A stretch of DNA of 63,956 nt, the filler included, from Reclinomonas americana ATCC 50394 (Eukaryota), in assembly GCA_048213135.1 (NCBI GenBank). It is 6 parts of 4 records of this genome, joined end to end, with 100 filler letters (N's around TTAATTAATTAA, not from the genome) between each part and the next. Parts side by side here need not be neighbours in the genome. Positions count along the whole stretch, not along the records: positions 1 to 16,621 come from PS015445.1; positions 16,722 to 43,386 come from PS015446.1; positions 43,487 to 51,701 come from PS015446.1; positions 51,802 to 58,328 come from PS015447.1; positions 58,429 to 62,753 come from PS015447.1; positions 62,854 to 63,956 come from PS015479.1. The stretch is one strand, 5' to 3'. This document shows, in pieces, positions 1 through 63,629 of the stretch. The stretch's first letter is position 1. Each line of letters begins with the position of its first letter. The notes below the pieces were generated by a model. The model did no database searches, was not told the DNA's origin, and saw only the letters and a list, made by a program, of their open reading frames with translations. A program made the translations under genes and the position numbers.

Positions 1-2981
1 TTCTCCTCATCTGCAGCCGAGATCTCACTACGAAAGAGACCACATACTGCTGCCGAGAAGCTCCAATCCCTTGTCGGTGTGGTAGCACCGCTTCTTCCGC
101 CGCCAACACCGCCACCACCCCCTCCACCAGCCGCAGCGGCTGTCATCAGCTTGTCGCCATCGTCCATGGCCTCGTCATCGTCACCGTCGCCGTCCTCAGC
201 AGGTGGAGCCACAGCCACCAGCGTGTCACCGTCCAATGGCTCGCACGGACAGTTTGTGTCGCCACCCTCACGTAGCGCGCCACTCAAGCGCGCCTTCAAG
301 GCCACGCACAAAATGTCTGGCAACGGCTCCTCGTCACCGACCAACGGCGGCAGCAGCAGCAGCACAACCACCACCACTACCACAACAACAACTGTCGCCA
401 CCAGCAGCAGTTCTGCCGCGGCGGCGGCTGCGGCGGCTGCTGCTGCTGCCAATGGCAGCAGTGCAGGAGCGTCGTCAAGGCGCGGCTCCATGATGGCGCC
501 ACCACCCATCATGACGGCACTACCGACAACGCCTCCCACTGGACCGCGTCCGCCGCCAGTTGAAATCTCCAAGGTTCGTTTCTATGTTGTTTCGTTGCCC
601 TTGCATCATCGTGTATCTGACTTGCGATGCCGACAGTACTATGGTGTGGATGCCGGTGCGGTGGATGCGGAGAGCGAAAAGGCGGTCGACAACTCGCTGG
701 ACGCCGATGTGCGACTGGTGGTGGACAGTGGACGATCGGTGGTGTATGCGCACTCGGCACGGTTGACGGCCAGCTGCCCGTTCTTCGCCACGCTGCTGAG
801 CGAGCGCGCCAGCAAGCGGGCGGCAGCAGACAAGAAGGCAGCAGTCGCGATGCAAGACGACCGTGAGGGTGGCGATGCGCCGACTGTCACCGCGAGCACA
901 ACCAATGTCGCCGACGCCGATGATATCGACTCGGCGAGCGTGCCGCGTGTGCTGTCACTGGAGGACGTGGAAATGGACGATCGCAATGCCCGTTCAAGTC
1001 CAAACACCACCAGCAAGTCGACGCTGCCGCCACTGCCGCCCATGTCGGAGGCTGAATGTTGCGACTGAGTTTCTCTCTCCTTCAAAAGGAGTCTCTTTTG
1101 CGTTTTTAGCTCACACGCACACGTTTCTACGCAGTTGTGACGCTGGAAGTCGCCGGTGTCAGTCGCGAGGCCATGATTCGAACTCTGCAGTTCTTGTACA
1201 CGCAGCGTCTGCACCTCAGCACGAGCGTGGTGTTGCAGTTGGTGGCAGCTGCCCGCTCTCTGCATCTGCCGGTGATGCTGGCGTACTGCACAACATTCAT
1301 GCACGAGAACCTGACGCCGCACCTGGCGCTGGCGTGCTGGGACTTGTCGCGAGCGGACCCGACGCTCTTCTCTGCCGCCTTCCTCGAGCACTGTGAACAG
1401 TTTGTGTCGCTGGAGATGAGCGCAGTGCTATCGGAGGACGCCTTTTTGCGTCTGTCGCCCGATTCGCTCCTGGCGTTCCTCGAGGCTTTCCACGAGTTCA
1501 TGTGCGAGAAGCCAGAGGAACTCTTTGTGAAGCTCGTGCAGTGGGGCAGGTGAGCGCTTGGAAGTCTTCGAAAAACAGTGGCGACTCTCTGCTCACTTCA
1601 CCTTCCCCCTCGCTCTCTCTGTGTGCGTGCACGCAGAATACATTTGCATTTGGCGCATGTGCCGCTGCAGGCGCTGCCGTCGGACGATCGCCGTACGCTT
1701 GCCACGCTGCTGGCGCGATTCATGGAGTTTGTGCAGTTCAACGAAATACCCTTCCAGCACTTTGTGCAGCGCATTGAGCCGACGCAACTGGTGCCGCTGG
1801 AGGTGGCGCATGCGCGATACAAGCAGCACCTGTTTACTTCGAACGCGGAGCAGAGACTATCGCCTCGTGGTGCGTCATCATTATCATCATTTCAGGTGCA
1901 GGAAGTTCAGTCGTTCGACTCACCTTTTGGCCCTGTTTTCCCTCTCTCACAGCGGACCATCTCGAGCTGTTGAGTGCCGTGGCCACTTCGGACCCGCAGA
2001 TGGATCAGTGCTCCATTCGCTGGGAGATTGAGCAGTTTGCCCAGATCACCGAAACGTACATTTCGAGCCCGGTGTTTGTGGCCGGCAATCAGTTTTGGTG
2101 AGAACCGATTTCCTCTCGTGACTCGCGCGCAATCATGGTCTCTCACAAACGCTGGTGGCTGGCGCGCAACAGGAGTCTCGTCTTGTATCCACGTGGCGAT
2201 TCAGATGCGGCTGGATTCATTTCGTTGTTTGTGCGGCGTGTGTCGGCGACCTCTGTCAATGCCAAGGTATTGTCGTGCACTCCGTTTTCTCTGTACCTTA
2301 AAAAAATGAGGTCACTGACGCCGCTGCAGTCGTGGGCCACCTCGTCCGTCGCCGGCAATGTGTCGTTCCGGTCGCCCGATGAAGACTTTAGGGTTTGTAG
2401 CCTCGAGTGGTTTCACTGTTGCTGTCAACACTCGTTTTGTGGGCCTGCTCACTCGTTCGCGCAGTCTGCCACGCCATCGCCACTGTCTCGCATGGATGAC
2501 AGAGTTGCGTCAGTGTGCGCACGCACACGCACCATCATTGATGGTGGCTGACATGTTTCATTGTTTTGCTTGTAGGGCACACCAACCAATGCTGATGAAC
2601 GAACGGCCTCGCGGCCTGGCACGCCGGCGATGAGCATGACGGTCAAGCCCGGAAGTGAGTGGGATCACGAGCAGGTTACACACATGGACCTGCGCTTCTC
2701 TGCGCATCCGGAGCCGCCTCATATGGACCCGCGTCGATGCAGTTGCGCAGTTGCCGCCGCCGCTGAAACAAACAACGCCTGTGCTCGTGACTCACGCGCT
2801 GGTGGTGACTGCAGAGTTGGTGTTCCGAAAAGATTGCAATGCGCTTGGATTCGGACCGTGCGTCGAGCGAGAGAAGCTGGTGGAGGCGTTGGGCGAGGGT
2901 GGGACTCTGTGGCTTCACCTGCTGATGTGCACGCCGCTGACCTCCAGCCGGCGGATGGTGTCGCTGGCAGGCTTTGCGTGA
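1..2981 (+). CDS. BTB/POZ-BACK-MATH domain protein (putative Cullin-3 adaptor); multi-exon, 5' end probably upstream of the window
   Basis: Frame 1 is open from base 1. BTB: DADVRLVVDSG..YAHSARLTASCPFFATLL, then LQFLYTQRLHL. BACK: LEHCEQFV..EDAFLRLSPDSL..ELFVKLVQW. MATH-like: IRWEIEQFAQITETYISSPVFVAGNQFW|SLVLYPRGD..FISLFV..LGFGPCV. Introns include 574-635, 1058-1134, 2504-2575 and 2742-2814. Stop TGA at 2981. Confidence 0.8.
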
Positions 2982-3107
2982 GGCACTGAGGAGCGTGCAT
3001 GCGTGTGTATGTGTGTATGTGTGTGGAGAGGGGAGGACGATGTGATGTGGATAAAAGAGATGACCAATTTGTGTGAATAAGCAAGCATTCATTCCTCCGC
3101 ATCCCCT

Positions 3108-6100
3108 CTATTCTTGTATGGATGTTGGTGACAGTGAGCTGTAGCGGCCGCGCTGTTGCTCGCGATCCCACAACACCACTGTGCCGGCCAGGCCGAGAAG
3201 CGACAGAAGCTGCACTGACGCGTTGGAGCTGAGGAACAGCGACACTGCACTGCCGCACGACGCCAGATACACAAACGCTGGCTTTGGCAACTCTGCGTGC
3301 GCACAGAGTCAGCAGAGAATATATCTGGCGAAAGAGAGAGAGAGAGAGAGTGTCGTGCAACTCACCGATCTTGATGCCGACAATCTCCGGCAATCCGCGT
3401 GTTGTACGGAACACCAAGTGCGCCAGCAGCGTCACCAGCTGCGCCGTGGTCACCGCCAAGCAGCCAAAGTTCCACAATGCAGACAGCACAGAGCCGCCGC
3501 GAACGACGGAGCCAATGATGCGGAAAACGCCTGTCCAGAAGAGCGGGAAGGTGCACGCGACAGTGGGCAGGATGTAGCGATTGTTATCGTTGAGATCGCG
3601 GGCGAGGAAGTTGTCCGGATGCATCAGCAAGAACAGCGAGGCGAAGAGAACAGTGGCACCCTCGCTGGGGATGCCCCACACCGACATTTGGAAGTTGGCC
3701 AACTGCGCATGCGTGTGTCAGCGTGATGATGATGACGACCACGACGACGACCAAATGACATGATTGTCGCAACACTCAACTTGCGCAAAGATGTAGGCGG
3801 TAATCACGCCGACATTGCACAGCAGTCCCATGCGCGACTTTTCCGACCGACTCAGGTGCACAACTCCAGCCTTCTTCGACAAAGACTGCTCCGACATGAA
3901 CTCGTCGCTCTTCTCCGTCGACTCCCTACACACGCGCACACTGTCAGTGACCAGTGCGGCAAGAAGAACTGCGTTGCGACTCACTTCTTGAGTGCCCTCT
4001 CCGAGGCCGTGAGCTTCAGTTTGAGCGACAAGGCGAAGAGCAGTGCGACGGCGGCATGCAGCGCAAAGAGAGCCACTGACGACTGTCGCTGCCACTCCAA
4101 GTAGAAACCGGGCGGCACCGACGCCTCCGACGTGAAGTAGATGAACAGGAAGGAGAAGGGGAAGCAGGCGACGCAAACCAGCAACCTGCAAACAAATGAA
4201 GAGAGCACTTGTGAGCCGCGAGCGTGCAGCTTGCCGTGACAACGCCTCACGTACCCAATGATCAGCGCTCGCACTTGGAATTTCGATGTCGTGAAGGTAA
4301 TGTGCGCAATCATCATGGTTCCCGCCACGCACGTGATCGAGATGCTGAGACCGAGCAGCAGGTTGACGTAGCGGAAAATGGCAAACGACACTCCAATGCC
4401 GAGACCCAGACCGGCCACCGCACTCAACGCCATTCGCGCAGCTGCGGCGATGATTTGTGAGGCACAAAGTTCAACTGCACCAGCACATACATCAAGGGGG
4501 ATGAAAACGCACGAGGAGTGTCCGGCAGTGGGGCAAGGGTGGCGACGCCGGCGCAAATCAGCACCACCGTGAGGACAGTGAACCGCACACGCGTTTCGTC
4601 ACTCGCTGCCGAGCCAGCCCACACGCACACGAGACCAGCAACACTGCAGAAGAACTGCAGGCGCTTGAGGTAGCGCACGTGCGGCAAGAACGACAGAGTG
4701 ACCGGCAGCGAGGCTGCGGCCACCGTCAGGAAGAAGGCGCCCATGGAGAACGTCTCCGACACCACTGGTCGGTAGAAGAGCAGGCTGAAGACGCGTGCCA
4801 GCACCATGTTGCGCGTGAAGAATGCCACTGCCACGAGGCCCAGCAGGTACTGGGCGACCTGTGGTGGTTGAAGATGAAGAGAGAGGACCACTGAGTCATC
4901 CGTGTCGTCTCACACAAGCACACACGCAGGCGCCGATGCGACTTACCTCCAGCTTGGTGACCTGCTGCTCACGGACGACGGCAATCTGCATGCGAGCGAA
5001 AGCGCACACCAACAGGAACAATGGCGGCAACGACCGAATGATGAGGTCGGAGCCCAGCAGCACCATCAGCTTGCACGAGTACAGTCCAATCAGCACCGAG
5101 GCGATGTTGGGCGAAATCAGCTCCTTCTTGAGTAGCCTGTAGCGAGTTGCTATTCAGCCAGCACGACTGATACTGCTGACATGCACAAAGACACGAACCG
5201 GTACGCAAAGAAGAGACCGCCCACAAGCGTCAGCAGGAAGAGGAACGATGGGTACATGGCTATGTGTGGCAAAGCGAGACCAATGAGTAAAAAATGCAGA
5301 AAGCGCGCACAGGAGATGGGGTGATGACGCAACGTTCCGCCTGGAACATGACAATCGTCTCCACCACCGACATGAACAGCGCCTGCAAGCACAGCAGTGC
5401 CGGGAAGCTGACTTGCACAACATGCGCCAGCTGCGTCATGGAATGCACGCGACGTCGATCAGTAATCGCGCGACGCGAGCAAGCAAACAAGAAACCACAC
5501 ATGCAGTACACAACTGAGCCCTTGGCCGCCGACCCACTGCGCGATGGCGACAGAGGCGCGTCGCCAGCACCACCCGCAACCAGTGTAGCACCGCCCAGCA
5601 GATCCAGGGCCACCAAGTGGTGGTAGGCACACACCACAAGCAGCGAGAGCACACCCAGCATGAAGAGCAGGATGGAGAAGTGCTTCAGAGCAATGCTGAA
5701 CGAGCCGCCCTCCAGTGTCAGGCGCATCTCGTAGCTGTACAGCGCATAATGAGGAACAGGAGATCAAACACGCCGAAATCGCTTGCCACGCAACAAAATG
5801 TGTCCAAACGAGCGCGAAATGTACTGCAGCAAGCACACCGTGAAAGCGCCCACAGCCGCATACAGCAGCTGTCTCGCGCACACAACGAAAACAAAAAAAA
5901 CAATGCACTTGAGTTCCTTTTCCAACAGCACCACCACGAATAATGGAGAACAAGTGGCGAACCTGGAACGAGCGCTTCATGATCCATGCTCCGCCTGCCG
6001 CACCGGCGAGGATGGCGCACAGAACGCCAATCGGACCGAACCCCATCAGCACAGCAGCACAGAAGCCACCAAATCCGCACACCGACGCCATGACGATGAT

Positions 6101-7813
6101 CAGCAGTCGGTGGCTGGCCGACGAGACCACTCGCTCGTCATCGGCAGCAATGGCTGGCAATCGAGTGATAATCACCAGCAGCAGGAAGCCACCCGTCGCG
6201 GTCACCGCCGTGCCCAAGAACAAGCGGCCCACCATGCTCATACTGACAAAGAAGGCGGCGAACCACTCGAACAGCACACGCGCCTCGAACCAAACGGACA
6301 GAATGGTGATGCACACGGCCAGCACAATGGTGTCGCGATTGACTGCGTCGCACAACAGAAATATGCATAAGATGAGGAATTCAACTTGCAGTCAGTGGTG
6401 GCCCTGGCACGTTGCTCACCGATCGACGGAGAGGCGCTGCCGGCGCGCTCATCCTCCTCAGCAAAGAACGACGATGTTGACGCCTTGCGACGACTGGCAC
6501 GGCCTGGCGAACCCACCGACATCCACCAAAGCAGACTCGGGCGCACTGCCATGTGCAACAGCAAGACCACCAGTGCGACCAGCGCCGCATTGTTGAGACC
6601 GTGACGGAACAGCGAATCGGTTCCACCAAGCAGACCGCCACCGCCCACGAGGCGGTACACGGACGAGCCGTCGTTGGCTGAGGCACATGTGATGAATACA
6701 AACAAAGACGGGAGGAGTGCGGTGCAAGTGGTGTGTGTGCGAGACTCACCGGGTGCCAGGTTCGACGGATAACTCAGGTGCAAGATCCAGTACACCGTAG
6801 TTGGCAGGCCGACAGGCAACACAAAAGAGACGAGCGCGCCCTCCATGTCGGTCTGTACGCGATCCTCGGCCGAGGTGGCGAGGTAGCGCGGAATCGACGA
6901 CTTGCCGTTGTTGCTGGTTCGCACCGGCGACATGGGCGACGATGCCGACGAGGACGACGAAGGGCCGGCGTTCACCGAGGTTCCCGGCAAGTCCACATCC
7001 ACGAAGCCGGGGGGATTGTGCACGAGCGGGGCGCTCGACGAGGCACGAGACGGGTCGCTCGTGTCGCGGTCGTGGCGATGCGAGTTGGGTCCCAGCTTGA
7101 ACGACGATCGCAGCGGCTGCATCATGGGACTGGCCACGGCCACCAAGAGCACGGCAAACAGAGCCGGCACCTGTTGCACCGACGACGACAACGTCGACGC
7201 CAGCTGCAGAACGCCCGACAGGCTGGCGATCGGCAGGCAGACGATCAGCATGCGCTCCATTGCCTGCACGCACCAAGCAGCTGTTAGCCACAGCAGTTCT
7301 TTTCCCGTGACGCGCATGCGTCACACAGACTCTTAGCGCTCACCAGCACCCATCGCGGACGCGTCCACTGCAGCCACCTAAACTGCAGCGTTGCCCAGAA
7401 ACCGCACAGAATCAGCAGAGCAAAGGAACTTGCCAGATCGATCGTCAATCGGATGGTGATGCTGCGGGAAGCAATGAGAAAAAGATGAGTCGGAAAGTGC
7501 ACACACACACACAGGGTGCACGCTGGCTCCACACAACGCAACAGAGGAGCTGCAATGTAGCCCTGCACCTGCCACATTGCGACGGCGGCCACGGTGAACC
7601 ACACGCTGGCCAACGTCCACTTCTTCACACCGGCAAAGTCGAGCGCGTAGGTGAGCAGCAGACCGAGAGCGGCAGTCGACAGCGATGACCTGCGCGCGCG
7701 CATCATCCATTGAGCGGGAATCTCCACATGACACGCGGAGTAACATTGCGTGCATGTGACAATGCGGCACGCACAGGCGCGCGCACCCACACACACACAT
7801 ACACACGCAGCCA
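3108..7813 (-). CDS. NO EXINE FORMATION 1 (NEF1)-like large multipass membrane protein; 5' end lost in the gap
   Basis: Spliced peptides LGLLLTYALDFAGVK, CGFWATLQFRWLQWTRPRWVLAMERMLIVCLP, PLRSSFK and LFLLMHPDNFLARDLNDNNRY resemble Arabidopsis NEF1 segments as I recall them (IGLLISYIVDSLNVK, GCWTSLQFKWLQ..ALERLLFACVP, PRVSSFK, ILLLLNQDSD..DKQRY), in the same order. Many hydrophobic helices. Confidence 0.75.
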
Positions 7814-8496: not shown

Positions 8497-10016
8497 TCAT
8501 GTGGCTTCGGTGGCGGCCGCAGAGGCAACAGAGTCACCATTTCCGGTGGCTCTTTGCAGCACTGCCCAGGCGTCGTCGGAGACGTCGAGACCCCGCGTGA
8601 TTATCAGTCGCTTCACCGGGCACACCGAGGCCGGTTCGCTGACGGCCAGCGCCAGTGCACGCACGCCCACGTCGGAGATGTGCGGGTTGGCGCGTAGGTT
8701 CAGCGCGCGAAGCGTCTGATTGCCCGGCATCTGTGTCACCTGGGCGCCGGGCTCGGTCTTGACCAGTTTCTCCTCGAACTGCGTCAGAGTCGGTGGCTTG
8801 CCCTTTGCTGGCGGCTGTCGACAAATACGGTGTGTTAAGACGACGTCGATCGAGAAGGAAGTGGGCCGCAGAAGCCAAACCTTCTTCGGGCCCAACAATG
8901 CATCCTCTCGTCGCAAGTGCAACGCAATCAACTGCTTCACCCACTCGTCGTCTTGCGACGGCCGCAGTGGCACGCGATCGCGCAGCACACGAGACAGCAC
9001 CAGAGCACCCGAGTCGCCGACAAAGTTGTGACTGAGGTCAATGTGCAACAGGCGCGGATGCACAACCAGCAGGTCGGCCAGCGCCCGCGCCGCTCCATCG
9101 CCCAACTCGTTGCCGTACAAATCCAGCGTGCACAGCGAGTCGTCCACGATGAGCCCATCGACCAGCGCCGCCAGGTCCTCGTCCACCAGATGGCAGTCGC
9201 GGAAGGCCAGGTGTCGTGCTACGTTGCGGATCTCGCGAAGAATTCTGCGTACGCGTCGCACCATGCATGAGCCGACGACAACAACGACGAAACGAGGAAG
9301 TGTGAGTGAGTGGAGAGAGAGAGAGAGAGAGAGAGCGAAACTGTCGGAATTCTACTCGGGCATCAGAAGGCGATCCACCGGCGTCGCTGCCGGCCACCGC
9401 TGCCGCAGCGGCAAACTCACAATTCTGAAACTCGACAAACGGCACTCGCCACGATCGCTGCTTATTGCCATGACACGCATCGCGCAAGCACGTGAGCACC
9501 AGCTGCCGCAGCGCTGCATTCGACACCCGAGTGTGCGAGATCACCACTCGTCGCACACAGTTGCTGTACTCGGGCAACACATCGCACAGCGGCCGCAGCT
9601 GCTCCGGTGACAGCGGGGTGACGGTGGCCAGCGCGGGTGCACTGATGGGTTTCACTGCGAGCGTGCGTGTCAGACACAGATAGAGCGAGCAGGTGGAAGA
9701 GGAGGAGGAGGAGGCAGGAAGACCGACCATCGCCACCAGAGGGCAAGTGGACGCGAATGAGCACATCGCATCTCGTGTGCAGCAGCTCGACGTACGGATC
9801 CGTCTCTTCCAGTCCCGTGAGGTCTGTGTGAACGGCGAAGAGAAGAGAGCGAGTGTGCGTGAGAGAGGGAGAGAGTGGGGAGAGCGCTCACAACGATCAC
9901 TGACCTGCCGGGTACGATGGCAGCTTCTCTGTGATCACTCGCACATGCGGATGCGCCGCTTCTGCACTGCCTCCACCGTATGCCTCAAGCACACGAGCAG
10001 CCAGCGAGGGAAACAT
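8497..10016 (-). CDS. RNI-like leucine-rich repeat protein
   Basis: Repeats LCTLDLYGNELGDGAARALADLL, LLHIDLSHNFVGDSGALVLSRVL and LRALNLRANPHISDVGVRALA. Probable ATG at 10016 (MFPSLAARVL), with several introns. Confidence 0.75.
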
Positions 10017-11495: not shown

Positions 11496-12848
11496 ATGAG
11501 CGGCGGTGACGCCATGGAATTTCTGGTGGCAGAGGTGCAGCGGATGTGGGCCAAGCTGGTCGATGTGGCGTCCTCAAACTTCCACTGGGAAGAGTTTGTG
11601 CGACCGTGGGACATGGCGAAAGGTACACACTCTCTCTCACACACACGCACACACACGAGGGAGACTCTATGAGCGTGTGAGCGAGAGAGAGCGCGCGGTT
11701 GCATCGCATCTCAAATTTGTTTTGCGTGCATGCATGCAGGATGGGATTGGTCGCAACTCGTCAATCCCTCCGCGTTTGAGTGGCACTCTGCGCCGTTTTC
11801 GAATCTGGCATTCGTGGTGTGGGCCTCGATTGCGTACTTGACCGTGGTCGTTGTCCTCAAGCTGTGCATGAGCTCGCGCAAGGTCGGCCTGCCGATTCGG
11901 CCAATGGTCGCGCTGCACAATTACCACTTGCTGCTCATCTCCGTCGCCATGTCCGTCGGCACCATCTGTGCTGTTGCGTGTTTTTTTATTCTTCTCCCTT
12001 GCTTCTTCTGCTGCTGCTGTGCGTGAGTGTGGGCTCAGCGCCCCCTTCCGCAGGTGTGGAAGATCCTGGTGAATCACATGTCGTCGGTCAGCGAGTTTTT
12101 CGAGTCGTGGGGATGCGACACGGCGGGCGAGATGAGCGTCGGAGCTGTGCGCTACTGGTGCTACATTTTCTACATCTCCAAGGTGGGCAGGCAGGAGCCG
12201 TTTCGCTGTTGTTGGCTGTGCAGCCTGCTGACGATTGCTGCTGCTGCTTGCTGCTAGTTTTACGAGTTGCTCGACACGATGGTGCTGGTGCTGCGCAAGC
12301 GCGACATCTCGTTCCTGCACATCTTCCATCACTTTATTGTGATGTACCTCTTCTGGATGTTCATGGAGATTAAGCTCAGCATCCACTGGGTGGCGGTGTT
12401 GTTGAACGTTGCGTTAGGATAGGAGTGAGCCGTGTGAGGCGCAAACAGGTGCACTGACGATTTCTTGCTTCCTCTCCAACAGTCGCTGGTGCACGTCCTC
12501 ATGTACTACTACTACATGATGACATCGTTTGGGCAGCCGCCGCGCTGGAAGCGCATGGTCACCAAGCTGCAGGTATTGATTGCATCGAAAAAATCGTGTA
12601 GTCACTGTGGATGCGACACTCAGCTCGTCGATGCGTGCATGCTATCACAGATTCTGCAGTTCGTGTCCGACATGCTCTTTGGCTGGCCCTACGTGTACTA
12701 CCACTACATCGACGAGAAGAAGTGCACCGGTCACCCGATTGGCTTCTGGTCCGGCTTCACCATCGGCTCCATTTTCATCGTGTTGTTCAGCCGCCTCTTG
12801 TGCTGTGGTGGCGCGCGCTCCGCCGACAGCAAAGAGAAGGAGGAGTAG
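11496..12848 (+). CDS. ELOVL: Very-long-chain fatty acid elongase (GNS1/SUR4/ELO family), 6 exons
   Basis: Motifs FYISK|FYELLDT, SFLHIFHH (His box), LLN|SLVHVLMYYYY and VTKLQ|ILQF. C-terminal KEKEE. In-frame ATGs at 11496 and 11514. Confidence 0.95.
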
Positions 12849-12951: not shown

Positions 12952-15943
12952 CTATTCGGTAGCCACTGCTTCTGCTTCTGCAGGCTCCTCTCCATCTCGC
13001 TGCTGCTGCTGCTGCTGCTGCTGCTCCGCCTCCCGTAGCCGTTGCTGCTGCGCGATCTGCTTCTTGAACTGCGAGTACTGGCGCAGAATACCGCGAATGT
13101 CGGCCACTTCGCCGGCAAACTCGGGCTTGTCGCGCACTCGTGTCAGGTAGTCCTCGAACGCGGACGCCATGCGTGCGGCAACCGAGGCGTCGGTGAAGCC
13201 GCCCACGCCCCACGCACGATGCAGCGCGATGCCGAGGTTCTGCAGTGGCACACAACACGTTGATACCAAGGAAAAAAACAACCACTTTCCACTCCCTCCC
13301 ACCCTCCACTCTCTCACCTTGAAAATGTAGTCCGGCATCGGCTCTCCCACATCCTCCTTCATGATGGCCTCCAGATCGGCGGCCATGAACTCCCAGATGC
13401 GCTGCAGCTTGACCCGCTGGCGAGTCACGTAGTCGCGCTCGGCAGGGCTGTCGGGACCTGTCGGTGCAATGGCGTCGGCACCCTCCGCCAGCGCGCGAGT
13501 CATAAAGTAGTGCACGCGGTTGTGGTGCACAATGATAAAGTCATGGCACGCAATGCGCTCCCACGTGCCCTCGGGATACTTGATCGGATCGCAACGCGGG
13601 AACGTGCCCAGCGGTACCAACGCATGCCGCGTGACCTCCAACAACCGATAGGCCTCGTGCGACACAATGTTGGCGCGTCCCGACACATACTCACGCGGCA
13701 TCATGCGCTCCGCAAAGCCGTGTGGCACCAGCACATACGAGGCCTTGTAGGAGTCGTCGCCAGCCTTGACGCCGTAACACGTGTAAATGTCGCGCTGGGG
13801 AATGTTGGCGTTGACAAAGTCGAGCATCGTGTACCCGCCCCGCTCCGTCGGACTGTACAACTCGCCGGGGAAGATGACGGTGCCGGGGAGGCCTTGCGCC
13901 TCCAGCGTGCGCACGTAGTTGGGAGCAAACCACTGATACGACATCATCTCCTGGTCGAGAACCACCACGTCGGTGCGGTAGCCCTCGCACTCCTGCACGT
14001 AGCGCACGGCGTTCGCCACCAGGTCGCCACGTGTCAGCAATATCGCACCCGGAGTCAACGGCATCAGCACTCCACGCCCAAATGCCGCAATGATGCTGTG
14101 CAGTCGGGGACGGGGAACAAACACAGCAGTAAGCATTCTGCCGGAGGCGGCAAGTGTCGACACTGCGGACGCAACTCATTGTCACTCTGGTCGGCGAGAC
14201 GGTACCGCAGCGCGACCACGGTGACCAGCAGTGCCACAGCCAGCACCTGCAGTACCCATTGCGTGTAAGGCTGCCGCTTTGGCGAGGCCTCCGCATTCGA
14301 CGACGATGCCGGTCCATCCACAGAACTCGCAGTGTCAGCGGCCGGCGCCGGCGCGAGTCCCAGCACGCGACACACGGCATGCACTCCAATGCCAATCACC
14401 ACGCACACCAGCAGATCCGGCTGCATCCAGAAGCGCGACACCACGTTGGCCATCAGCGGCTTGTCGGGATCGAGATTGGCGCGTGAGTGGAAAAACACCA
14501 AGTACAGCGCCAGGGCAGCCAGCCACGGGAATGCCAGTCGACCAACACCGCGCGACAGAACTAATTGGTGAGCGAGAAGGGGGGAGAGATGAGAAGCAGA
14601 CCACTGGAACGCAATGCACGCAAACACACCGTTGAGCGACGAACGACGACGCCAGGCCGCCAAAAACGCCACCGCACCAATGCTAAACAGCACGAGGCCG
14701 GTGTGCCACGTCACTGACTGCACGTGCGCAGCGTAGCTGCCGAGGCCGCGCATCAAATCCGGCGGCACTGTGTTGTCGCCACGCGAGGCCAGCTGGAAGG
14801 TGCCGTACTCCTCGCGCGACATGTGGCGAAGGAGGCCCGACACGGACAACATGTCACCTGCACCGGTGCACGGTCTGTCGCTGATGATGTGACGGACGCG
14901 CGACGAGAGAACGCTTACGAACCCCAGGTGTGCGCTGGCGATGCCAGAGCGGCTGCGATTGGCATGTAGAGATATGGCGTCAGACCAAGCGCAAAGTAGC
15001 CGGCGAGTTGCAGGATCAGGCGTCGGAATGACGCCCACGAAGACGCCGCACGCGGAACGGTGGCCAGCACCCACACAATGATGGGAAATTCGTACAGCAC
15101 CAGCGTGTGCTGGTTAGACAGACCGAGTCCACAGACGAGAGCGCCCATACGGCACAGCCACAACTGTCGCCCGGTGAAAATGACCGGCGCCTTCTTGACT
15201 GGTGACGCAGGCGCCGCCTTTTTCGGTGCCGGCACAGGACTGCTGTCGGCCTTGAGCTTCGCCGCGCCGGTTTCCTCATCGCTCTCCACCTGCAGCGCCA
15301 GCTCCACCGACAGCCACAACAGCGCCACCACAAACAAGTTGTTCAAGGCAAACACCTCGGCGCCGATCGAGAACTCCCACGTGAGCGGACTAAAGGCGAA
15401 CAGGGTCGTGGCCACAAGCGACGCCGCCACGTTCTTGGTCAGTCGCCAGCACACCGCGAACACGCCCGCCGCAGTCAGCGAGGCCAGCACGGCGTTGGCC
15501 AGATTTGCCCGCCACGCTGGCGACGGGCCTGCAGTCTGCGGAAACACGCCCAGCACACTCATGGCCGCACGTGCAAACATGGTGAAGAGTGGATATCCAG
15601 GCGGATGTGCCACGCCAAAGTTGCTGGCTGTCAACACACGACGCCGATGAGAAGTCGGAAGACAACTCTTCTCTTGCAATGCATGCATGCATGCATGAAA
15701 TATGATGACGCATACATCTCACTCACACTCACACACACGCACTCTCTTTCTCTCTCTCACACACACACACTCCTCTCTCTCTCTCTCCTCCCCTCTGCCT
15801 CGCATACACACACACAGAGAAGACTGACCGACGGCCAGCAGCTCTCCGCTGTCACCACCCGGTACACTCTTGTACAGCGTGGAGCTGTACACGGCCAGTG
15901 CCACCGCAAAGCACACGAAACACCATCGTCGCCACGACTCCAT
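12952..15943 (-). CDS. TMEM260: TMEM260 (DUF2723) protein O-mannosyltransferase-like GT-C membrane protein
   Basis: Motifs SVPGGDSGELL, GVAHPPGYPLFTM, AEVFALNNLF, GLGLSNQHT, HMSREEYGTFQL, RFWMQPD and GDLVANAVRYVQECEGYRTDV. Confidence 0.92.
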
Positions 15944-48961: not shown

Positions 48962-51701
48962 ATGTCGGTGATTGGTATCGACTTTGGTAACGATCGGTGA
49001 GTCTTTGTGCCCGACATGTCCCCTACTCTCTGTTCTCTCTCTCTCCCTCCCTTTCTGCTTCTCTCCACTTCCTAGTCGTCTCGTTTGCACGCGATCTCTG
49101 CGCAAGTGTGTGTGTGTGTTGTCCGTTCCACATATTCTGCGTGCTTGCGTCATGAGGAATTTGTCAGCTGAGACTTACACACTGTGTGATCATTGCCACA
49201 GATGCAAGGTCTCACTGCCTGCAGGCGGCATCGTCGAAGTGGTGCTGAACGAGGTCTCCAATCGCGAAACACCGTTGCGTTTGCTTGCTTGCGTGGGGGG
49301 ACAAGTGCTTGCGTCATGTGTGTGCCATGCTCACGTGTGAGCCACACTCTTCTTCTTCTTCTCCCGTCTTCTCCAACAGAACATTGATTGGCTTCAGCGA
49401 TAAGGAACGCGACATTGGCGAGACGGCGTTGTCCAGGGTGAGTGAGTGAGTGAGTGCGTGAGGTGCTGACGTGGCTGACAACTGGTGTGCTCATCGTCAT
49501 ACACAGCTGTCGATGAACTATGCCAACACGGTGGTCGGCCTGAAGGTGTTCATCGGTCGCAAGTTCAGCGAGTCGATTGTGCAGGATGAGATTGCTCGAG
49601 TGGGATGCACTGTCGTGGAGGGCCAGAATGGCGATGCGGCGTTTGAGGTTTGTGCAGAGAGAGCGAGAGGCTCGTCTTCCTGTGCCGATTGCTCATTGTG
49701 TGGTTTCGGGATCGCACAGGTGGAGTACCAGGGCAGGAAGGTGATTGTGACGCCCGAGCAGTGCGTGGCGGCGCTCTTCCGTCGCTTCAAGGAGTTCGCC
49801 GAGCAAAAGATCGGCAGCAAGGTCGCCGATTGTGTGGTGGCGGTGCCGAGCTACTTCTCCGACGCACAACGCCGTGCCGTGTTCAACTCGTGCAGCATTG
49901 CTGGCCTCTGCTGCCTGCGTGTGTTTAGCGAGAGCGCTGCTGGTGAGACTGGCTGTGCTCACTTTGTTGTGTCGTCTGGCTCACCGTTCCCCCCCGCTGT
50001 GCAGTGAGTCTGCAGTACGCCTTCTCGCGCCTCAGCGAGTTGCCGACCGCCGATCAGGACGCTCGCCTGGTGATGTTTGTCGATCTGGGACACTCGTCGC
50101 TGGACGTCACGATCAGCAGCTTCAACCAGAACGGCTTGAAGGTGCGTGTGTGCGACACACGTTGTGTGACGGGCACACTGTCCTCACTCACCTCTTTTAC
50201 CCGCAGGTGCTGGCTGCCGTGTCGAACCCTCACATTGGCACTCGTGATTTGGATTTGGTGATTGCCGAGTGGGTCCGCGCCAAGTTCCAGGCGCAAACCG
50301 GTCTCGATGTGCGCGAGCGCAAGCGCAACTGGATTCGTCTCCTGGCCGCCGCCGAGCGCTTCAAGAAGCTGCTGTCGGCCAATCGAGTTGTGCCCGTGAA
50401 TGTGGAGAGCATCTTTGGCGATCACGACTTCCGTGGCACGATTGAGCGCGAGGAGTTCGAGTCGCTGGCGCAGGGCACGCTCAGCCAGATGATGGCTCCG
50501 ATTCACACCTGCATTGCCATGGCCAGTTGCGTGTGGCTGTCCCCCTCTATAGTCTGCTGCTTTTATTCATTCGTTTCTCACGTGTGATATACACATTTGC
50601 AGAGGTCGCCGCCACGTCGCTGCACTCGATTGAGATTATCGGTGGAGGTTCGCGCATTCCGGCGTTCCAGCAGCAGGTCAAGGACTTCCTTGGCCAGCCG
50701 AGCCAGACGCTGAGTGCCACCGAGGCCGTCTCGATCGGCGCATCGTGGATGGGCGCCATTCTCAGCCCGTCGTACCGCGTGCGTCCGTTCGAGGTGCGCG
50801 ACACTGTTCCGTACCCGATCAACCTGCACTGGGGCGCCGCCAGCAAGGTCCAGTCGAGCGGCATGGATGTCGACGACACGTCACCTGTTGCGTCACTCAT
50901 CCCACCTCCACTGTCCCGCATTTCTCCTTCTGTGTGTGTGTGTGCTGACCCTCGTCGGCTGCGCAGCTGTTCACTCAAGGCGAGGTGTACCCGGTGATGA
51001 AGTGCATTACGTTCCGCGAGACCGACGACATTATCCTGTCGGTTGAGTACGACCGCCGTGTCGAGTACCGCACGCCCGACGACCACCCTGTGGTGTTGGG
51101 CGAGTTCCGCGTGAAGGGCGTTCCGCGCGATTTGGTGGACGGCAAGAAGCCCAAGGTCAAGGTGCAGCTGCGCATGAACATGCACGGAGTGGTGGAGGTC
51201 GAGTGGGCACGCCTGATCGAGGAGTACGAGGAGGTGGTGGAGCCGGCAAAGGAGGGCGAGGCCAGTGGAGCAGAGGGTGCAGCGGCGGCGGCCGAGCCGG
51301 TGCTGAAGAAGAAGGTCCGCAAGACCGATCTGGAGGTCGAGTCGCGCGTCAATGGACTCACGTCGCAGGTGGTCGAGGTACGCGTGTCTGGGGGGAGGAG
51401 GGGGATGATGTTGGAGGAGAAGACTGACACTCTTCATGTTGCAGCGATTCCGCCAATCCGAAGACGAGATGGTGGCCAAGGACAAGCTGGTGCTGCAGAC
51501 GCAGGAGGTCAAGAATGCTGTGGAGGCCTACATTTATGCCTTCCGAAGCCGCGTGCAAGAGTACGGTGATTTGGTCGACTACGAGGTGGCTGAGGTGAGA
51601 GAGAGGACACTGGATGCAAGTGCAAGGGCTGTGAATGTGCATGATGCTCACAAACGTGTGCTTCTTTTTCGCCGCAGATTCGTGACGCCTTCTTGGCATA
51701 C
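48962..51701 (+). CDS. HSP110/Sse1-type Hsp70-family chaperone; 3' end truncated at a linker gap
   Basis: Motifs MSVIGIDFGN, VLNEVSNRETP, DCVVAVPSYFSDAQRRA, VMFVDLGHSS, IEIIGGGSRIPA, ILSPSYRVRPFEVRD, KVKVQLRMNMHG, KKKVRKTDL and KNAVEAYIY. Confidence 0.93.
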
Positions 51702-52196: not shown

Positions 52197-54223
52197 TCAA
52201 GTAAATCCCGCCTGTGCCAGCGGCCTTCCACTGTCCACTGGCAGCCCTCTTGCCGAGGAGACCGGCACCGCTTCGCCCCCGTTGGTCATGGAGAAGTGTT
52301 CCCGGAAACCGGCGTACCGCAAAAACGCGTCAATCTCATCGTGTCGTGCGACGGGTTGAGCCGCTGGCTCTGCTACGGCGGCGGCTGTTGGTGTTGGTGG
52401 CGCTTGTTGGTGATGTTGTTGTTGCTGCTGTTGGTGTTGTTGTTGTTGTTGTGAGAGGTGCGCGGCGTGGGCAAACACTGTGCGTGGTGACGGCTGGCCA
52501 CTGTGCTGGTATTGCGACATGGCTCGTCGCGCAGGCGAGAGGCTCTGTGAGCCGCCCAGGAGCGTCGACAGGGGCACCGTTACTGTGCTGGACATGGCAG
52601 CAGCGCCGCGGGGCGAGGTCAGGAACGCGTTGTGGTAATGCTGCTGGTAGCTGGCCTCCTGCTGGCGAGCTCGCACGGCATCTCGATCCGACGCCTGCTG
52701 GTACAGCCGCTCAAATGGCGAACCGTCGCGGTACAGCGACCGACTGCGCGGGTTGATCGACGGCACGCCTCGGCTCGGTGAACCTGCACGAATCACGCTC
52801 GTGTGAGACACACTGCTCACTCATCACCCTCTCCGTTCCCCCACACGCAACTGTCTTCGCGCAGCGTGGCCAGCTTCTCCTCGCGCTGCCGTTGGAACTC
52901 ATACGCCCGCTCTACCACGGGCTTGCCCTCGGGAGCCACCTTGCGTGCCAGCTTCTTCGAGCGCTCGTTCAGCTCCGGCTTGAAGGTGAGGTCACGCGTG
53001 CGTTCCTCCTCCATGCGTTTCTCAATCGCGTGCAGATTGTCCTTCTTCACCTCCACCCACTGATGCAGTGCCTCGATGCCGCGGTTGAGGGTCTTGGAGC
53101 GCTTGTTGATCTGCGGCTTGGCCTGCACCTCCTTCAACTCCATGTCCTTCAGTTGCTGCGTCTGCCGCTCCAGCTCCTCCTTTCGTTGCGTCTCCAACAC
53201 GTCCATGCGCTCCCGGATGGGTGCTACTCAACGGAGGTGAGACACGTGGGGAAACAAAGAGACGCGATGTGGGCGACAAACCGAGAGAGGCCGTCAGCTT
53301 TCGCGATTTCTTCGAGATCTCCGGTCGATTCCTCAGCTCGGCTGTCTCCGCGGCCTCACGCTCCGCACGAATCGCATCACGCTTCACCGTCGCCGCCTCC
53401 TTGTGCCGCAGCAGCCGCTCGGCCACCAGCTTGGCTCGGGACATTGTAATCTTCTTGTTTGACGGTCGCCATCCGGGCGTGTCGGCATCCACACTCTCCC
53501 CTCGCGCCGACCCACGTGCCGACGCCGCTGTCGCAGCCACCACCGCCCCTGCAGCGGCCGCCGAGCTTGGCGAAGGCGTCGCTGCCGCCTGCTGCTGTCG
53601 TCTCCGCCCTGCCGACGCATCACGCGGTGCCGATCGACTGCGCAAACGAAATCACATGAGTGCAACGACGACGATGGCAGCGAGCGCACGCACGAGAACA
53701 AACCTGCGTCCATTGGAGGCAGCGCGACGTGGAGTCACCGCCGCCGACTCCTCCGCCTCCGGCTCCTCGCGATCCACGCTCACTCGTCGCCGCACCTCCA
53801 CCGCCGTGCCACCCAGCATCTTCGACAGCTCCGAGAGCGCTGCCTGTGTGTGCGTGTGTGCGTGTGTGTGGTGAGACAACAAACACAAGAGAAAAAAATC
53901 GAAGAGCGGACCACTCGCATCAGCAAAACGGACCTCCAACTGATCACGATTCTGGTACGCTGGCACCGCTGCTGCTGCTGATCCTCCCCGCGACAGCGCC
54001 GTGCGCGATGACGTGTCGCCCTGCCGCCCACCTGCGCCATTGGCGGCGGCGTGATAAAAGGCGTTGCCGAGGGCACTGCGCGTCTTTGTGGCTCCTCCTC
54101 CTCCTCCTTGCTCAGAAGAGACACCAAAGAAGCGTCGCGCATCGCTGCCTGCGTCGTCCTCGTCGCTGTCGGTGTAGTAGTGCGCAATCATGCCCAGCGC
54201 ATCCTCAGCACGTACGTCCACCA

Positions 54224-54224: not shown

Positions 54225-54265
<41 letters not shown>

Positions 54266-58328: not shown

Positions 58329-58480
58329 NNNNNNNNNNNNNNNNNNNNNNNNNNNNNNNNNNNNNNNNNNNNTTAATTAATTAANNNNNNNNNNNNNNNN
58401 NNNNNNNNNNNNNNNNNNNNNNNNNNNNTCTCATCTGTTTAGTATGATCACGTGCATGTTGGCTGATGCACGTCGTACAG

Positions 58481-59409: not shown

Positions 59410-61750
59410 ATGACTGGAGTGAACCATTGCCGCGATGCGCTCGAGTGCATTGTGCGCCGCCTGGTGCGCAGCCCCGGAAGCGATCTGGCACTCGCTCTCG
59501 ACTGTGTGGAAGTGATTGCAACGCGTATCCGACAGGCCACGCCATCGCTGATTGAGGTGAGTGCTCGTGTGTGTCTCTGCCTGTGTGTGCGTGAACGCAC
59601 ATTCTCACTGCTGTGAGAACCCTCGCCAGGATGCTGTATCACTACTGCAAACGGCTCCGTCGGCAGGCAAGCTGGTGCCGAGTTTCATCTCGCGTCTCTT
59701 GGCGATGCGGCAACATTTGGTGTGTGTGTGTGAGAGAGAGAGAGAGATAGGGTTCACATGCATGCACCCCCGTCTGATGCATACGCACATGCAGCACATT
59801 GACCTGGTGTTAGAGTTGTTTCACCTGATGGAGAAGCGCAACCTCGACGATGCATACGATTTTGTGAGGCCGTTGCGTGACGCTCGCCCTCTGTCTCCCT
59901 CTCGCACACACAACCATACAAACAACACGCGCTCTACTGCAGGTTTGCCACAACGAATCAGAGCACCAGTGTCGAACCGACCCTGCGCGGCGAGTTTGCT
60001 CGCTGCTGCTTCCTGCTGTACGAGAACAACATTCACATGGCCGACGCGCGACGACGCGGTTTGTCGTGGTTGCACGAGGGTAGTCGGCACCTCACTGTGA
60101 GAAAAGAGCAGACACTTACATTGGTCTCCTCTTTCCGCCCGCAGATGCCGCAATGCGGTACGCCGAGGNNNNNNNNNNNNNNNNNNNNNNNNNNNNNNNN
60201 NNNNNNNNNNNNNNNNNNNNNNNNNNNNNNNNNNNNNNNNNNNNNNNNNNNNNNNNNNNNNNNNNNNNNNNNNNNNNNNNNNNNNNNNNNNNNNNNNNNN
60301 NNNNNNNNNNNNNNNNNNNNNNNNNNNNNNNNNNNNNNNNNNNNNNNNNNNNNNNNNNNNNNNNNNNNNNNNNNNNNNNNNNNNNNNNNNNNNNNNNNNN
60401 NNNNNNNNNNNNNNNNNNNNNNNNNNNNNNNNNNNNNNNNNNNNNNNNNNNNNNNNNNNNNNNNNNNNNNNNNNNNNNNNNNNNNNNNNNNNNNNNNNNN
60501 NNNNNNNNNNNNNNNNNNNNNNNNNNNNNNNNNNNNNNNNNNNNNNNNNNNNNNNNNNNNNNNNNNNNNNNNNNNNNNNNNNNNNNNNNNNNNNNNNNNN
60601 NNNNNNNNNNNNNNNNNNNNNNNNNNNNNNNNNNNNNNNNNNNNNNNNNNNNNNNNNNNNNNNNNNNNNNNNNNNNNNNNNNNNNNNNNNNNNNNNNNNN
60701 NNNNNNNNNNNNNNNNNNNNNNNNNNNNNTGCAGCATCGTCTGCCGTCGCCACCTCATCCTCCCGCCACTCCACCGCCTCCTCCTCCTCCTCCTCCTCCT
60801 CCAGCTCCATCTCTGCCTGCTCCGCCAGTGATTGACCTGTCGACTGCCATTGTGGTGGATCCTGTATCGGCCGCAGCCGCAGCTGCAGCCAAGAGAGGAG
60901 GACCGCGTCGCGAGTATCACGTGTTCACAGACTTGGAGGTGCGTGTGTTATGTCATCATCATCATTCACGCAAATATCTTGGATTTCTTGTTTGTGCGTG
61001 TGTGATCTCGCGCCATGTCTCTCTGCGTGCACACACGCCTCCGCTGCACCGCGCTCACGACTGTGGTGTGTCTGTGTGTGTGTGTGTGTGTGCGTGCCGC
61101 GCAGCGTCTTGTGCTGGAAGAGTTCCGCCCAATCTACTTTGCCGAATCGCTGCCGAGTGGGTGCTACTCGCAGCAGGCGCACCGCGATGTGGTGGTGGCG
61201 CAGATTGCCGAGCGTGGCGTGCAGATGGGCAGCCCGTACCTGCAAGAAGCGTATCGTGTGCGGACGTGGATGAACAACAATCGCGACTCGGCGCGAGAAC
61301 GGCGACAAGCACGCCGTCGACCGAATGCCGACGGCACTGGTGGCGAGGGCGGTGGCGAGGGCGACGACAATAGCGACAGGAGAATAAGTAGGGAACGGAG
61401 TTCGGAGGAGGATGGAGAAGAGCAGCAGCAACAACAACAAGAACAACAACAACAACAACAACAGGAGGGTGAAAGGGAGGCGGGAAGTGGCCGTCGCCGT
61501 CGCCGAAGAAATAGCGCTCGTGGCGCTGGAGGTGACGCGTCTGACGCCAGCTCGTCTGGAACCGAACGGATGCACAAACGTTGCGTTGTGCTGTTCATGA
61601 CACCGTGCTGCATCTCCTCTGCTCACCGTGCCGACGATGCAGGCGACTCCACGTCTCCCCAGTCGTCGTCACGTTCGCCATCACGAGCGGCAAAAGAAGC
61701 GCCGGTCGCCGGCGACAGTTTCGTCTGCACTCTATTCCCTTTTCTGTACC
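59410..61750 (+). CDS. Protein with a helical N-terminus and a divergent homeodomain-like C-terminal region; gapped
   Basis: Frame-consistent exons run from MTGVNHC. After the gap: RREYHVFTDLE|RLVLEEF...RVRTWMNNNR. Confidence 0.55.
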
Positions 61751-62700: not shown

Positions 62701-63038
62701 TGGAGGTGGAGCAAATGCTGTTGCTGTCCACATGCACAGTGAGCTCCATGTGANNNNNNNNNNNNNNNNNNNNNNNNNNNNNNNNNNNNNNNNNNNNTTA
62801 ATTAATTAANNNNNNNNNNNNNNNNNNNNNNNNNNNNNNNNNNNNNNNNNNNNCCTCTCGCTCTCCCCCTCTCGTTCTCTCCACTCTCTTTCTCCCCTCT
62901 CGCTCTCCCACTTTCGCTCTCCCCCTCCGTCTCCCACTCCATCTCCTCCTCCTCCTCGCTCTCCCCTCTCGCTCTCCTCTAGCTCGTGCCTCCCCCTCTC
63001 GCTCTTCCCATCTGCGTCTCACTCCCTCTCCCCCGCAG

Positions 63039-63629
63039 TACCCCACCGGCAACTTCTGCTGCAAGTGGTACGTCTTGCTGTCATTCTTCTCTCCACACTT
63101 CCCCCTCACTCACATCTTCCGCTCCCTCCAGCTCTCAGCACATTGGCGCCATTCGCTGTTTCGTGACCCTTCACATCACACTCTCTCCCTTTTCGTGCCG
63201 CTCACCACTTGCACGCAGACGACTGGATGCGCAACGGCGGCACCTCCTACACCGGACAGTCGATTGTGAATGGTTCGCTCCCGCTCATCGCCCCTCACCT
63301 CTTTCCCCCCTCCGCCTCACTTGCCACCCGCAGGCGTCAAGGTCGACGGCTGGCTCAAGTACGGCGCCTCGGACAACCACTACTACGCCACGACCGACGC
63401 GGCGCAGCGCCCCGTGCAGTACATGGAGCACAAGAACGGACAGCTGAAGCAGTGGGAGTTGCGCTGCGCCCGTTTCCCCTCCCCCGTTTCTCTCTCTCTC
63501 TCTCTTCTCACTCCACCCCACAGCTTCGACCTGAGCACCTACGCGCCCGGCCCGCAAAAGGACTCGCTCTTCACACCGCCGGCCAACTGCGACAAGCGCT
63601 GCCTCAGCGACGTGTGCATGTTTGCCTGA
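63039..63629 (+). CDS. 3' part of a Cys-containing secreted-type protein, ependymin-related (EPDR)-like
   Basis: Motifs YPTGNFCCKW, VKVDGWLKYG..YYAT..RPV and WD|FDLSTYAPGPQKDSLFTPPANCDKRC. The FxxPxxC end is typical of EPDR/LolA-fold proteins. Confidence 0.5.

Follow-up and report, generated by a model that had tools for sequence, protein, structure and literature searches.

An abundant class of GTTGCGT 5' splice sites without +5G in Reclinomonas americana and their possible recognition one nucleotide out of register

Introduction

The G at position +5 of the intron (+5G) is among the most conserved intron positions, and both the U1 and the U6 small nuclear RNA (snRNA) pair with it. What, then, reads a 5' splice site (donor) that lacks this base and is nevertheless common? 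The question is raised by a stretch of DNA from the eukaryote Reclinomonas americana ATCC 50394 (GenBank assembly GCA_048213135.1), here called the window, which comprises 63,956 bases with about 58% G+C outside 6,201 N and contains dense genes of eukaryotic type that are split by many short introns. A preliminary description of this window had listed 27 introns beginning with GTTGCG and several related donors with G at +6, had regarded them as ordinary donors carrying one extra T, and had proposed for them a shifted pairing with U1 and U6 or a variant snRNA or cofactor. In the present work, we have examined how abundant such donors are at intron starts, whether the junctions that they imply agree with homologous proteins, and by which mode of pairing they may be recognised.

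Abundance of GTTGCG at intron starts

GTTGCG is present on the strand given for it at all 27 of the coordinates listed earlier. The expectation that it should exceed what base composition predicts holds only in part, as the hexamer by itself occurs 75 times against 67.7 expected and 18 of 100 shuffled sequences reach 75, but at intron starts it takes the top place in tests that are blind to the donor. The longer motif GTTGCGT occurs 36 times where 14.83±3.91 are expected, a 2.4-fold excess that none of the 100 shuffles reaches.

Two donor-blind tests were carried out. The first is a filter to which GT is all that is known of the donor and which otherwise judges by reading frames, codon score, a branch-like motif and an intron end in YAG; 193 of 7675 GT sites pass it, and GTTGCG is the top hexamer (11 of 75 sites, p=2.8e-6), ahead of GTGAGT (6 of 63). 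The second is a Viterbi gene model without a donor term, in which GTTGCG begins 7 of 97 introns and is tied for first place. A self-trained gene model was then obtained by seeding a hexamer donor term from the donor-blind filter and iterating; this term uses intron bases only and not the exon side. It yields 29 genes and 144 introns, mostly 55-90 nt long, among which GTTGCG is the donor of 29, GTGAGT of 14 and GTGCGT of 9. A position-weight donor model, with which self-training had initially been attempted, was dropped, as it drifted to GTGTGT repeats and over-called introns.

The self-trained model makes recognisable errors (viz. an ELO fatty-acid elongase gene wrongly discarded by a strand-overlap rule, and an in-frame intron of a TatD gene read through), and about 29 of its long introns are not trusted. 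Because of these errors and the untrusted long introns, class statistics were restricted to the 115 introns of at most 135 nt, which divide into 36 of the form GTT-N-N-G without +5G (the GTT-N-N-G class, 26 of them GTTGCG), 70 with +5G (the +5G class) and 9 others that are probably errors. The exact hexamer thus begins about 20% of all predicted introns and about one quarter of the short ones, and the share of the short introns rises to about 30% once the relatives of the form GTT-N-C-G are counted.

Of the 27 GTTGCG introns claimed, 22 are recovered by the self-trained model, and those at 11973 and 12408, which it misses because the strand-overlap rule discarded the ELO gene, are established through Pfam and by direct reading; the remaining three (2742, 21133 and 29451) are not chosen. 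Frameshifting length or an in-frame stop makes 25 of the 30 listed introns that were tested necessary for the reading frame. Among the related donors with G at +6, GTTGAGT at 3780 (minus strand) and GTTACGT at 23891 are correct as first described, but the one placed at 48152 is off by one, its GT lying at 48153, and 9352 (minus strand) is not a GT, the GTTTCGC in question being at 9341 (minus strand). Seven GTTGCG donors beyond those listed were found by the model (5580-, 5794-, 25682-, 26389-, 42163-, 52851- and 55095+, the sign giving the strand), two of them on long and doubtful introns. With GTTGCG as the top donor hexamer and further sites added, its abundance as an intron start is a stronger observation than had been stated, and we consider the intron class to be very probably real.

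Within predicted exons GTTGCGT is absent from the sense strand (0 in 34,229 exon bases), while it occurs 4 times in antisense and 22 times as a donor. This absence suggests an avoidance of cryptic sites, a reading that depends on a model which itself favours the GTTGCGT donor.

Agreement of junctions with homologous proteins

Junctions were checked with single exons, by asking whether successive exons lie directly next to each other on a common reference. Homologues agree with ten GTTGCG junctions and with one GTTACG junction, and for seven of these (12408, 23571, 23732, 23891, 34591, 49274 and 50526) the agreement is exact. For the WDR61/SKI8-like gene the reference is a solved structure of WDR61 (6gmh_W), on which exons 2-5 correspond to residues 108-126, 127/128-156, 157-187 and 189-277. 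The junctions are as follows, a slash marking an exon-intron or exon-exon boundary here and below.

11973..12053, plus strand: GTTGCGT intron, ELO gene; the ELO profile covers 3-58 upstream and 69-98 downstream, and read-through meets an in-frame stop.
12408..12482, plus strand: GTTGCGT intron, ELO gene; exact, the last residue before the intron being position 148 of the Pfam ELO profile, where the match ends, and the first one after it being 149, where the match resumes.
23456..23511, plus strand: GTTGCGC intron, WDR61/SKI8-like gene; the flanking exons match WDR61 77-102 and 108-126, a fit within 2 residues.
23571..23638, plus strand: GTTGCGC intron, WDR61-like gene; exact, residues 1-19 of exon 2 being 108-126 and residue 2 of exon 3 being 128, so that residue 1 is 127.
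23732..23796, plus strand: GTTGCGT intron, WDR61-like gene; exact, residues 2-30 of exon 3 being 128-155, so that residue 31 is 156, and residues 1-31 of exon 4 being 157-187.
23891..23955, plus strand: GTTACGT intron (related donor with G at +6), WDR61-like gene; exact, exon 4 ending at 187 and exon 5 starting at 189, with the split codon as 188.
32747..32809, plus strand: GTTGCGT intron, in the HemD portion of a HemD-TatD gene; the last residue before the intron is position 79 of the HEM4 profile, where the match ends, and it resumes at 80 on the third residue downstream.
34591..34650, plus strand: GTTGCGT intron, TatD part of the HemD-TatD gene; exact by tblastn of bacterial TatD homologues and by their C-terminal sequences, to which the spliced protein aligns ungapped.
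49274..49379, plus strand: GTTGCGT intron, HSP110-like gene; exact, homologues P0126 and P0130 aligning ungapped on both sides (NEVSNRETP/TLIGFSDK).
50526..50602, plus strand: GTTGCGT intron, HSP110-like gene; exact, with exactly 6 residues lying between position 318 of the HSP70 profile (upstream) and position 325 (downstream); HSP110 homologues agree ungapped, P0129 having 12 residues to either side of that span.
50887..50966, plus strand: GTTGCGT intron, HSP110-like gene; P0130 matches on either side, a variable loop there differing by one residue.

In the five genes checked against homologues, 10 of 25 introns begin with GTTGCG, a share that is biased upward since the genes were chosen partly for their claimed sites. 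The intron at 32747 has a tandem acceptor, CTGAG/CAG/ (32801-32809), which gives intron lengths of 60 or 63 and products that differ by one residue. Bacterial TatD homologues place five introns in the TatD part of its gene, with the donors GTGGGA, GTGTGT, GTCCGT, GTTGGA and GTTGCG. The homologues of the HSP110 exon found in an exhaustive search come from scattered eukaryotes, with at most 45% identity for full-length proteins and 59% for a 74-residue fragment. Longer searches for homologues that started from an HSP110 exon or an ELO exon returned none, and no related locus was detected in scans of metagenomes for which one HSP110 exon and one TMEM260-like exon served as queries.

Features of the class on the intron and the exon side

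Apart from the donor, the two classes of introns are closely alike. Their median lengths are 71 nt (36 GTT-N-N-G introns) and 70 nt (70 +5G introns), their G+C content is equal, and CTCAC is the commonest branch motif in both. A YTNAY motif ([CT]TNA[CT]) is found in 30 of the 36 GTT-N-N-G introns, in 15 of them as CTCAC, with the median branch A 21 nt from the 3' end as compared with 20 nt in the ordinary introns; all 36 start with GT, and the acceptor is CAG in 30 and TAG in 6, while CAG ends 64 of the 70 +5G introns. Judged by these sequence features, the introns of the class are genuine U2-type GT-AG spliceosomal introns that are ordinary apart from the donor side. A U12-type identity was considered and rejected, as the donor GTTGCGT and a branch motif CTCAC/CTGAC like that of the main class do not match the U12 consensus ([AG]TATCCTT with TCCTTAAC).

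The donor side differs in two respects, of which one is uniformity. Of the 45 short introns that lack +5G, 26 begin with one and the same hexamer, whereas the commonest ordinary hexamer, GTGAGT, accounts for 14 of all 144 predicted introns, and the consensus of the GTT-N-N-G class is (C)A/GUUGCGU. The absence of +5G and the presence of G at +6, as first described, are borne out, and T at +7 is also typical: it is found at 22 of 26 GTTGCG donors of short introns, and at 22 of all 29 GTTGCG donors as compared with 14 of 46 GTTGCG sites that are not donors.

The other difference lies in the exon, which the donor term of the model does not use. A G at -1 precedes 55 of 70 +5G donors but only 1 of 26 GTTGCG donors (Fisher p=1.1e-11), the latter having A 13, T 8, C 4 and G 1 at -1, and most often C (10) or A (9) at -2. 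The loss of -1G is not due to the T at +3, because +5G donors with T at +3 keep -1G (14 of 18), and it is therefore specific to the GTTGCG class.

The ordinary class has a peculiarity of its own. In most eukaryotes position +3 is a purine, often A. Among the 115 short introns of the window A at +3 is nearly absent from both classes (3, as against T 54, G 46 and C 12), and the ordinary class is thus unusual too, being of the form GT[GT]NG.

Recognition of the GTTGCGT donors

We incline to the reading that the ordinary machinery recognises these donors in a displaced register. In this reading the 5' splice site would be recognised one nucleotide out of register, with G+1 taking the place of the ordinary -1G, with U+3, G+4, G+6 and U+7 taking the places of U+2, G+3, G+5 and U+6, and with A-1 and C-2 standing in for the ordinary A-2 and C-3. 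When A-G/G-U-G-C-G-U is written over A/G-U-U-G-C-G-U, all positions are equal but one (the ordinary +1 G is matched by U at +2), and the cut falls one base earlier. Boundaries of the type UU...CA, one base downstream, would yield the same mRNA as GU...AG, since the intron begins and ends with G. The ACAGAGA box of U6 ordinarily pairs with +4 to +6; here cleavage would stay at GU, for which reason U6 would have to loop out one U in order to pair with G+6 and U+7.

The exon-side evidence (-1G at 1 of 26 as compared with 55 of 70) supports this displacement by one, as had been proposed. The accompanying formula, an ordinary donor with one T added, oversimplifies, although the motif does resemble GTGCGT displaced by one base: the GTT-N-N-G class has GC in 26 of 36 donors and GA in 2 of 36, whereas the two are about equally frequent in ordinary donors. 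Duplex energies were computed with the U1 5' end as printed in PMC4856993 and PMC9311317, which may not be the U1 of this organism. For the class consensus the duplex of lowest energy is the one shifted by +1, at -2.5 kcal/mol, its pairs (U1 nucleotide first) being C9:G+1, A7:U+3, U6:G+4, C4:G+6, A3:U+7, U10:A-1 and G11:C-2.

Several observations weigh against a displaced register read by the ordinary machinery. Standard U1 pairs weakly with these donors in any register (mean -1.9 kcal/mol for the 36 sites vs. -6.4 kcal/mol for the 70 ordinary donors), and for the individual sites the lowest-energy duplexes place C4 on G+6 in 9 of 36 cases and on G+1 in 11 of 36. The C at +5, present in 32 of 36 donors of the class, would be a mismatch to standard U1, and GTTGAG, from which better pairing would be expected, is found in only 2 of 36, while ordinary donors have GA 19 times and GC 14 times among 70 at +3 and +4. 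As C+5 is nearly fixed, GTTGAG rare and the pairing of standard U1 weak, something appears to read C+5 and to demand a match over seven bases. Furthermore, -1G is also uncommon at GTTGCG sites that are not donors (6 of 46), so that the class is better described as one without a preference for G than as one proven to avoid it, and the set of introns derives in part from our own gene model with its self-trained donor term.

A second explanation is that CA/GUUGCGU is read by contiguous Watson-Crick pairs with a dedicated variant of the U1 snRNA, or with a sole U1 whose 5' end is altered, and that ordinary U1 would serve the +5G class; we regard this as possible but doubtful. The standard 5' end of U1 is ACUUACCUG. 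The variant is predicted, as distinct from found, to begin with a sequence close to AUACGCAACUG, in which position 5 is G, position 6 is C and position 8 is A, and which would make nine consecutive pairs with CA/GUUGCGU; as a dedicated snRNA, this second U1 would be complementary to CAGUUGCGU at its 5' end. Such a molecule would fit the far greater uniformity of the class (one hexamer in 26 of 45, +7T in 22 of 26), the C+5 that standard U1 would mismatch in 32 of 36 donors, the weak pairing of -1.9 kcal/mol, and the preference for A-1 and C-2, which suits U1 positions 10 and 11; expressed variant U1 genes, moreover, reportedly exist in humans (PMC3561869, PMC10870369). On the other hand, to our knowledge the 5' end of U1 is almost invariant among eukaryotes, and the uniformity could instead reflect the number of pairs needed by a weak shifted duplex. 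An Rfam scan of the window detected no snRNA gene of any kind and no RNA family at gathering scores, the only matches at E<=1 being chance-level ones to mir-3149 and isrG. A broader form of this proposal, which we put forward equally tentatively, is that two major-type donor codes operate in parallel, a loose GT[GT]NG read by ordinary U1 and CA/GUUGCGU read by a variant U1 with a 5' end near AUACGCAACUG or by some other dedicated factor.

A third proposal keeps the ordinary register and bulges one U: G+1 and U+2 would pair with U1 C8 and A7, U+3 (or U+2) would loop out, and G+4 to U+7 would pair as +3 to +6 usually do. It agrees with the motif being GTGCGT plus one T, with the listing of bulge +2/+3 among the registers described for human 5' splice sites (PMC4856993), and with the fact that U6 needs to accommodate an extra base in any event. 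The loss of -1G argues against a simple bulged U, however, because a bulge leaves -1 facing U1 C9, so that the preference for -1G should persist or even grow, whereas it is seen at 1 of 26 of these donors and 55 of 70 ordinary ones; the lowest-energy duplex of the consensus is also shifted and not bulged. We therefore consider the bulge improbable.

That the GTTGCG sites are an artefact, i.e. chance motifs near real donors or products of wrong gene models, is very improbable and is already contradicted by the data. Such an explanation can appeal to the hexamer alone not being over-represented (75 vs. 67.7 expected), to the capacity of a self-trained model to inflate its favourite donor, and to the three claimed sites that remain candidates (2742, 21133 and 29451). 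It is opposed by the 2.4-fold excess of GTTGCGT (36 copies, a number reached by 0 of 100 shuffles), by the first or tied first place of GTTGCG in the donor-blind tests, and by seven junctions that Pfam profiles, solved structures or homologues place exactly, down to the single residue. A recently spread family of mobile introns (introners) carrying GTTGCGT at the 5' end would explain the uniform 5' end but is scarcely credible, as the interiors of these introns share 8-mers no more than those of ordinary introns (80 of 630 pairs vs. 250 of 2415), which shows that they are not copies of a mobile element, and their lengths and branch motifs match the ordinary class.

Comparison with known systems

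Validated non-canonical U1 registers account for 1.5% of 201,541 human 5' splice sites, or 2.1% with provisional ones, as compared with 0.9% for GC-AG introns and 0.36% for U12-type introns (PMC4856993). The human sites read in a shifted register (Roca and Krainer, 2009, as presented in PMC4856993) resemble those described here in being GT-AG sites without +5G, with G+6 and U+7, with all U1 pairs moved by one position and with the cut at GU, and the test oligonucleotide ACA/GUCAAGUAU printed in PMC4856993 has the same layout as the GTTGCGT class. Those human sites are rare exceptions, however, whereas in the window no donor is commoner than a single motif of this kind, which begins 29 of the 144 predicted introns, and this motif, GUUGCGU, is not the best partner of standard U1 in the shifted register. 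The registers with a bulge or an asymmetric loop (Roca et al., 2012; Tan et al., 2016, PMC4856993) share with the present donors one extra nucleotide of the 5' splice site relative to U1, but for bulge +2/+3 an exon-side -1G is expected, which is found here at 1 of 26. For the tandem donor of STAT3 non-canonical registers of both U1 and U6 have been proposed (PMC11162779), so that the idea of U6 as well as U1 being out of its usual register is shared; STAT3 concerns just one site in humans, at which two GUs compete, whereas here a class typical of the genome is concerned.

The strict GTGCGTG donors of Ostreococcus lucimarinus (Irimia and Roy, 2008, PMC2483917) are likewise GC-rich, atypical and very uniform around GCG-T. 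They retain +5G and the ordinary register in an intron-poor genome, whereas the donors described here have an extra T, lack +5G and stand beside a loose ordinary class in an intron-rich genome. The introns of Plasmodiophora have a median length of 55 nt and a TCTGAC branch motif (PMC2483917), as compared with about 70 nt and CTCAC in the window. The share of U12-type introns in humans (0.36%, PMC4856993) contrasts with tens of percent here, where the branch, length and acceptor are those of the main class.

U12-type introns also constitute a second and more uniform donor class, but their donors are read by U11 instead of U1. Text searches of the literature did not find GTTGCG or GUUGCG as a splice signal, and since figure logos and supplements are not searchable an earlier description is possible. 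Literature searches on the CTCAC branch motif returned nothing on such a genome, and those on U1 divergence in protists nothing relevant.

Other introns of the class and gene content of the window

The remaining introns and candidates are listed below; "model" refers to the self-trained gene model.

1058..1134, plus strand: GTTGCGA intron, BTB/BACK gene; BTB profile 10-45 upstream and 54-109 downstream, frameshifting length, in-frame stop; model.
2504..2575, plus strand: GTTGCGT intron; model only, in frame without a stop and so not strictly required, without Pfam support.
2742..2814, plus strand: GTTGCGC candidate intron; CTCAC, CAG, frameshifting length; not chosen by the model.
35891..35973, plus strand: GTTGCGT intron; model, frameshifting length, stop.
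46814..46878, plus strand: GTTGCGT intron, nucleotide-sugar transferase-like gene; model, frameshifting length, upstream exon matching Pfam Nucleotid_trans.
48153..48229, plus strand: GTTTCGT intron (related donor, earlier given as 48152); model, frame test.
59872..59942, plus strand: GTTGCGT intron; model, frameshifting length.
63458..63523, plus strand: GTTGCGC intron; model, in frame without a stop.
3703..3780, minus strand: GTTGAGT intron (related donor with G at +6); model, frame test.
5260..5333, minus strand: GTTGCGT intron, large membrane-protein gene; model, frameshifting length, stop.
5735..5794, minus strand: additional GTTGCGT intron; model only.
7462..7542, minus strand: GTTGCGT intron, same large membrane-protein gene as 5260..5333; model, in frame without a stop.
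9245..9341, minus strand: GTTTCGC intron (earlier given as 9352); model.
14096..14175, minus strand: GTTGCGT intron, TMEM260-like gene (the family being a lead only); model, frameshifting length.
18782..18827, minus strand: GTTGCGT intron, calponin-homology repeat gene; model, frame test, ambiguous acceptor giving 46 or 64 nt.
21058..21133, minus strand: GTTGCGA candidate intron before a last exon of 6 codons; the upstream exon ends at DUF1764 position 94 of 100, and the model prefers the donor at 21099.
21219..21297, minus strand: GTTGCGT intron, DUF1764 gene; model, downstream exon matching DUF1764.
25617..25682, minus strand: additional GTTGCGT intron; model only.
25800..25884, minus strand: GTTGCGT intron; model, frameshifting length.
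26333..26389, minus strand: additional GTTGCGT intron; model only.
29377..29451, minus strand: GTTGCGT candidate intron adjoining a low-complexity exon; CAG 75 nt downstream, not chosen by the model.
29969..30027, minus strand: GTTGCGT intron before a LisH-motif exon; model, frameshifting length, LisH match downstream.
41202..41270, minus strand: GTTGCGA intron between ankyrin-repeat exons; ankyrin matches on both flanks, in-frame stop; the model chose a longer version of 266 nt.
42093..42163, minus strand: additional GTTGCGT intron; model only.
52784..52851, minus strand: additional GTTGCGT intron; model only.

A GTTGCGT at 61580 (plus strand), in a gene that is modelled poorly, has CTCAC 42 nt and CAG 63 nt further on and looks like the start of another intron of the class.

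The recognisable genes of the window encode a BTB/BACK protein, the ELO fatty-acid elongase, the WDR61/SKI8-like WD40 protein, the HemD-TatD fusion and the HSP110-like chaperone, as well as ankyrin, kelch and calponin-homology proteins and an L7Ae/SNU13-like protein, the last identified only by reading its sequence. In a protein atlas search the TMEM260-type clusters were all bacterial. All four introns of the WDR61/SKI8-like gene (23380-24233, plus strand) that precede a gap of N carry donors of the GTT-N-N-G type, three GTTGCG and one GTTACG. Two further donors of the ELO gene, at 11623 and 12573 (plus strand), are AAG/GTACAC and CAG/GTATTG, which lack +5G, are not of the GTTNCG type and have a strong exon side; the intron at 12573 is in frame without a stop and hence only probable. 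The gene at 32419-34740 (plus strand) apparently joins a HEM4 domain (uroporphyrinogen-III synthase) and a hydrolase of the TatD family in one fusion, and its long TatD exon shares 52-60% identity with TatD proteins of bacteria; the HemD-TatD gene may be of bacterial origin, with its five introns acquired later. At five places in the window (16622-16721, 43387-43486, 51702-51801, 58329-58428 and 62754-62853) two blocks of 44 N enclose exactly 12 bases, which looks like a pattern of assembly or masking and not like biology.

Significance of the GTTGCGT donors

The commonest single donor of the window lacks +5G and yet is almost invariant over seven bases. One practical consequence concerns gene prediction, as programs trained on GTxxG donors would model about a quarter of the introns of this genome wrongly. 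If two donor codes do operate in parallel, the GTTGCGT class would represent a third donor system beside those of U1 and U11, serving about a quarter of introns. If the recognition of 5' splice sites out of register, which concerns about 1-2% of human sites, is true genome-wide for the donors described here, R. americana would provide a natural system in which it is routine. The class would make testable the tolerance of an extra base by U1, by U6 and in the hand-over from U1 to U6, and also the co-evolution of snRNA variants with donor classes.

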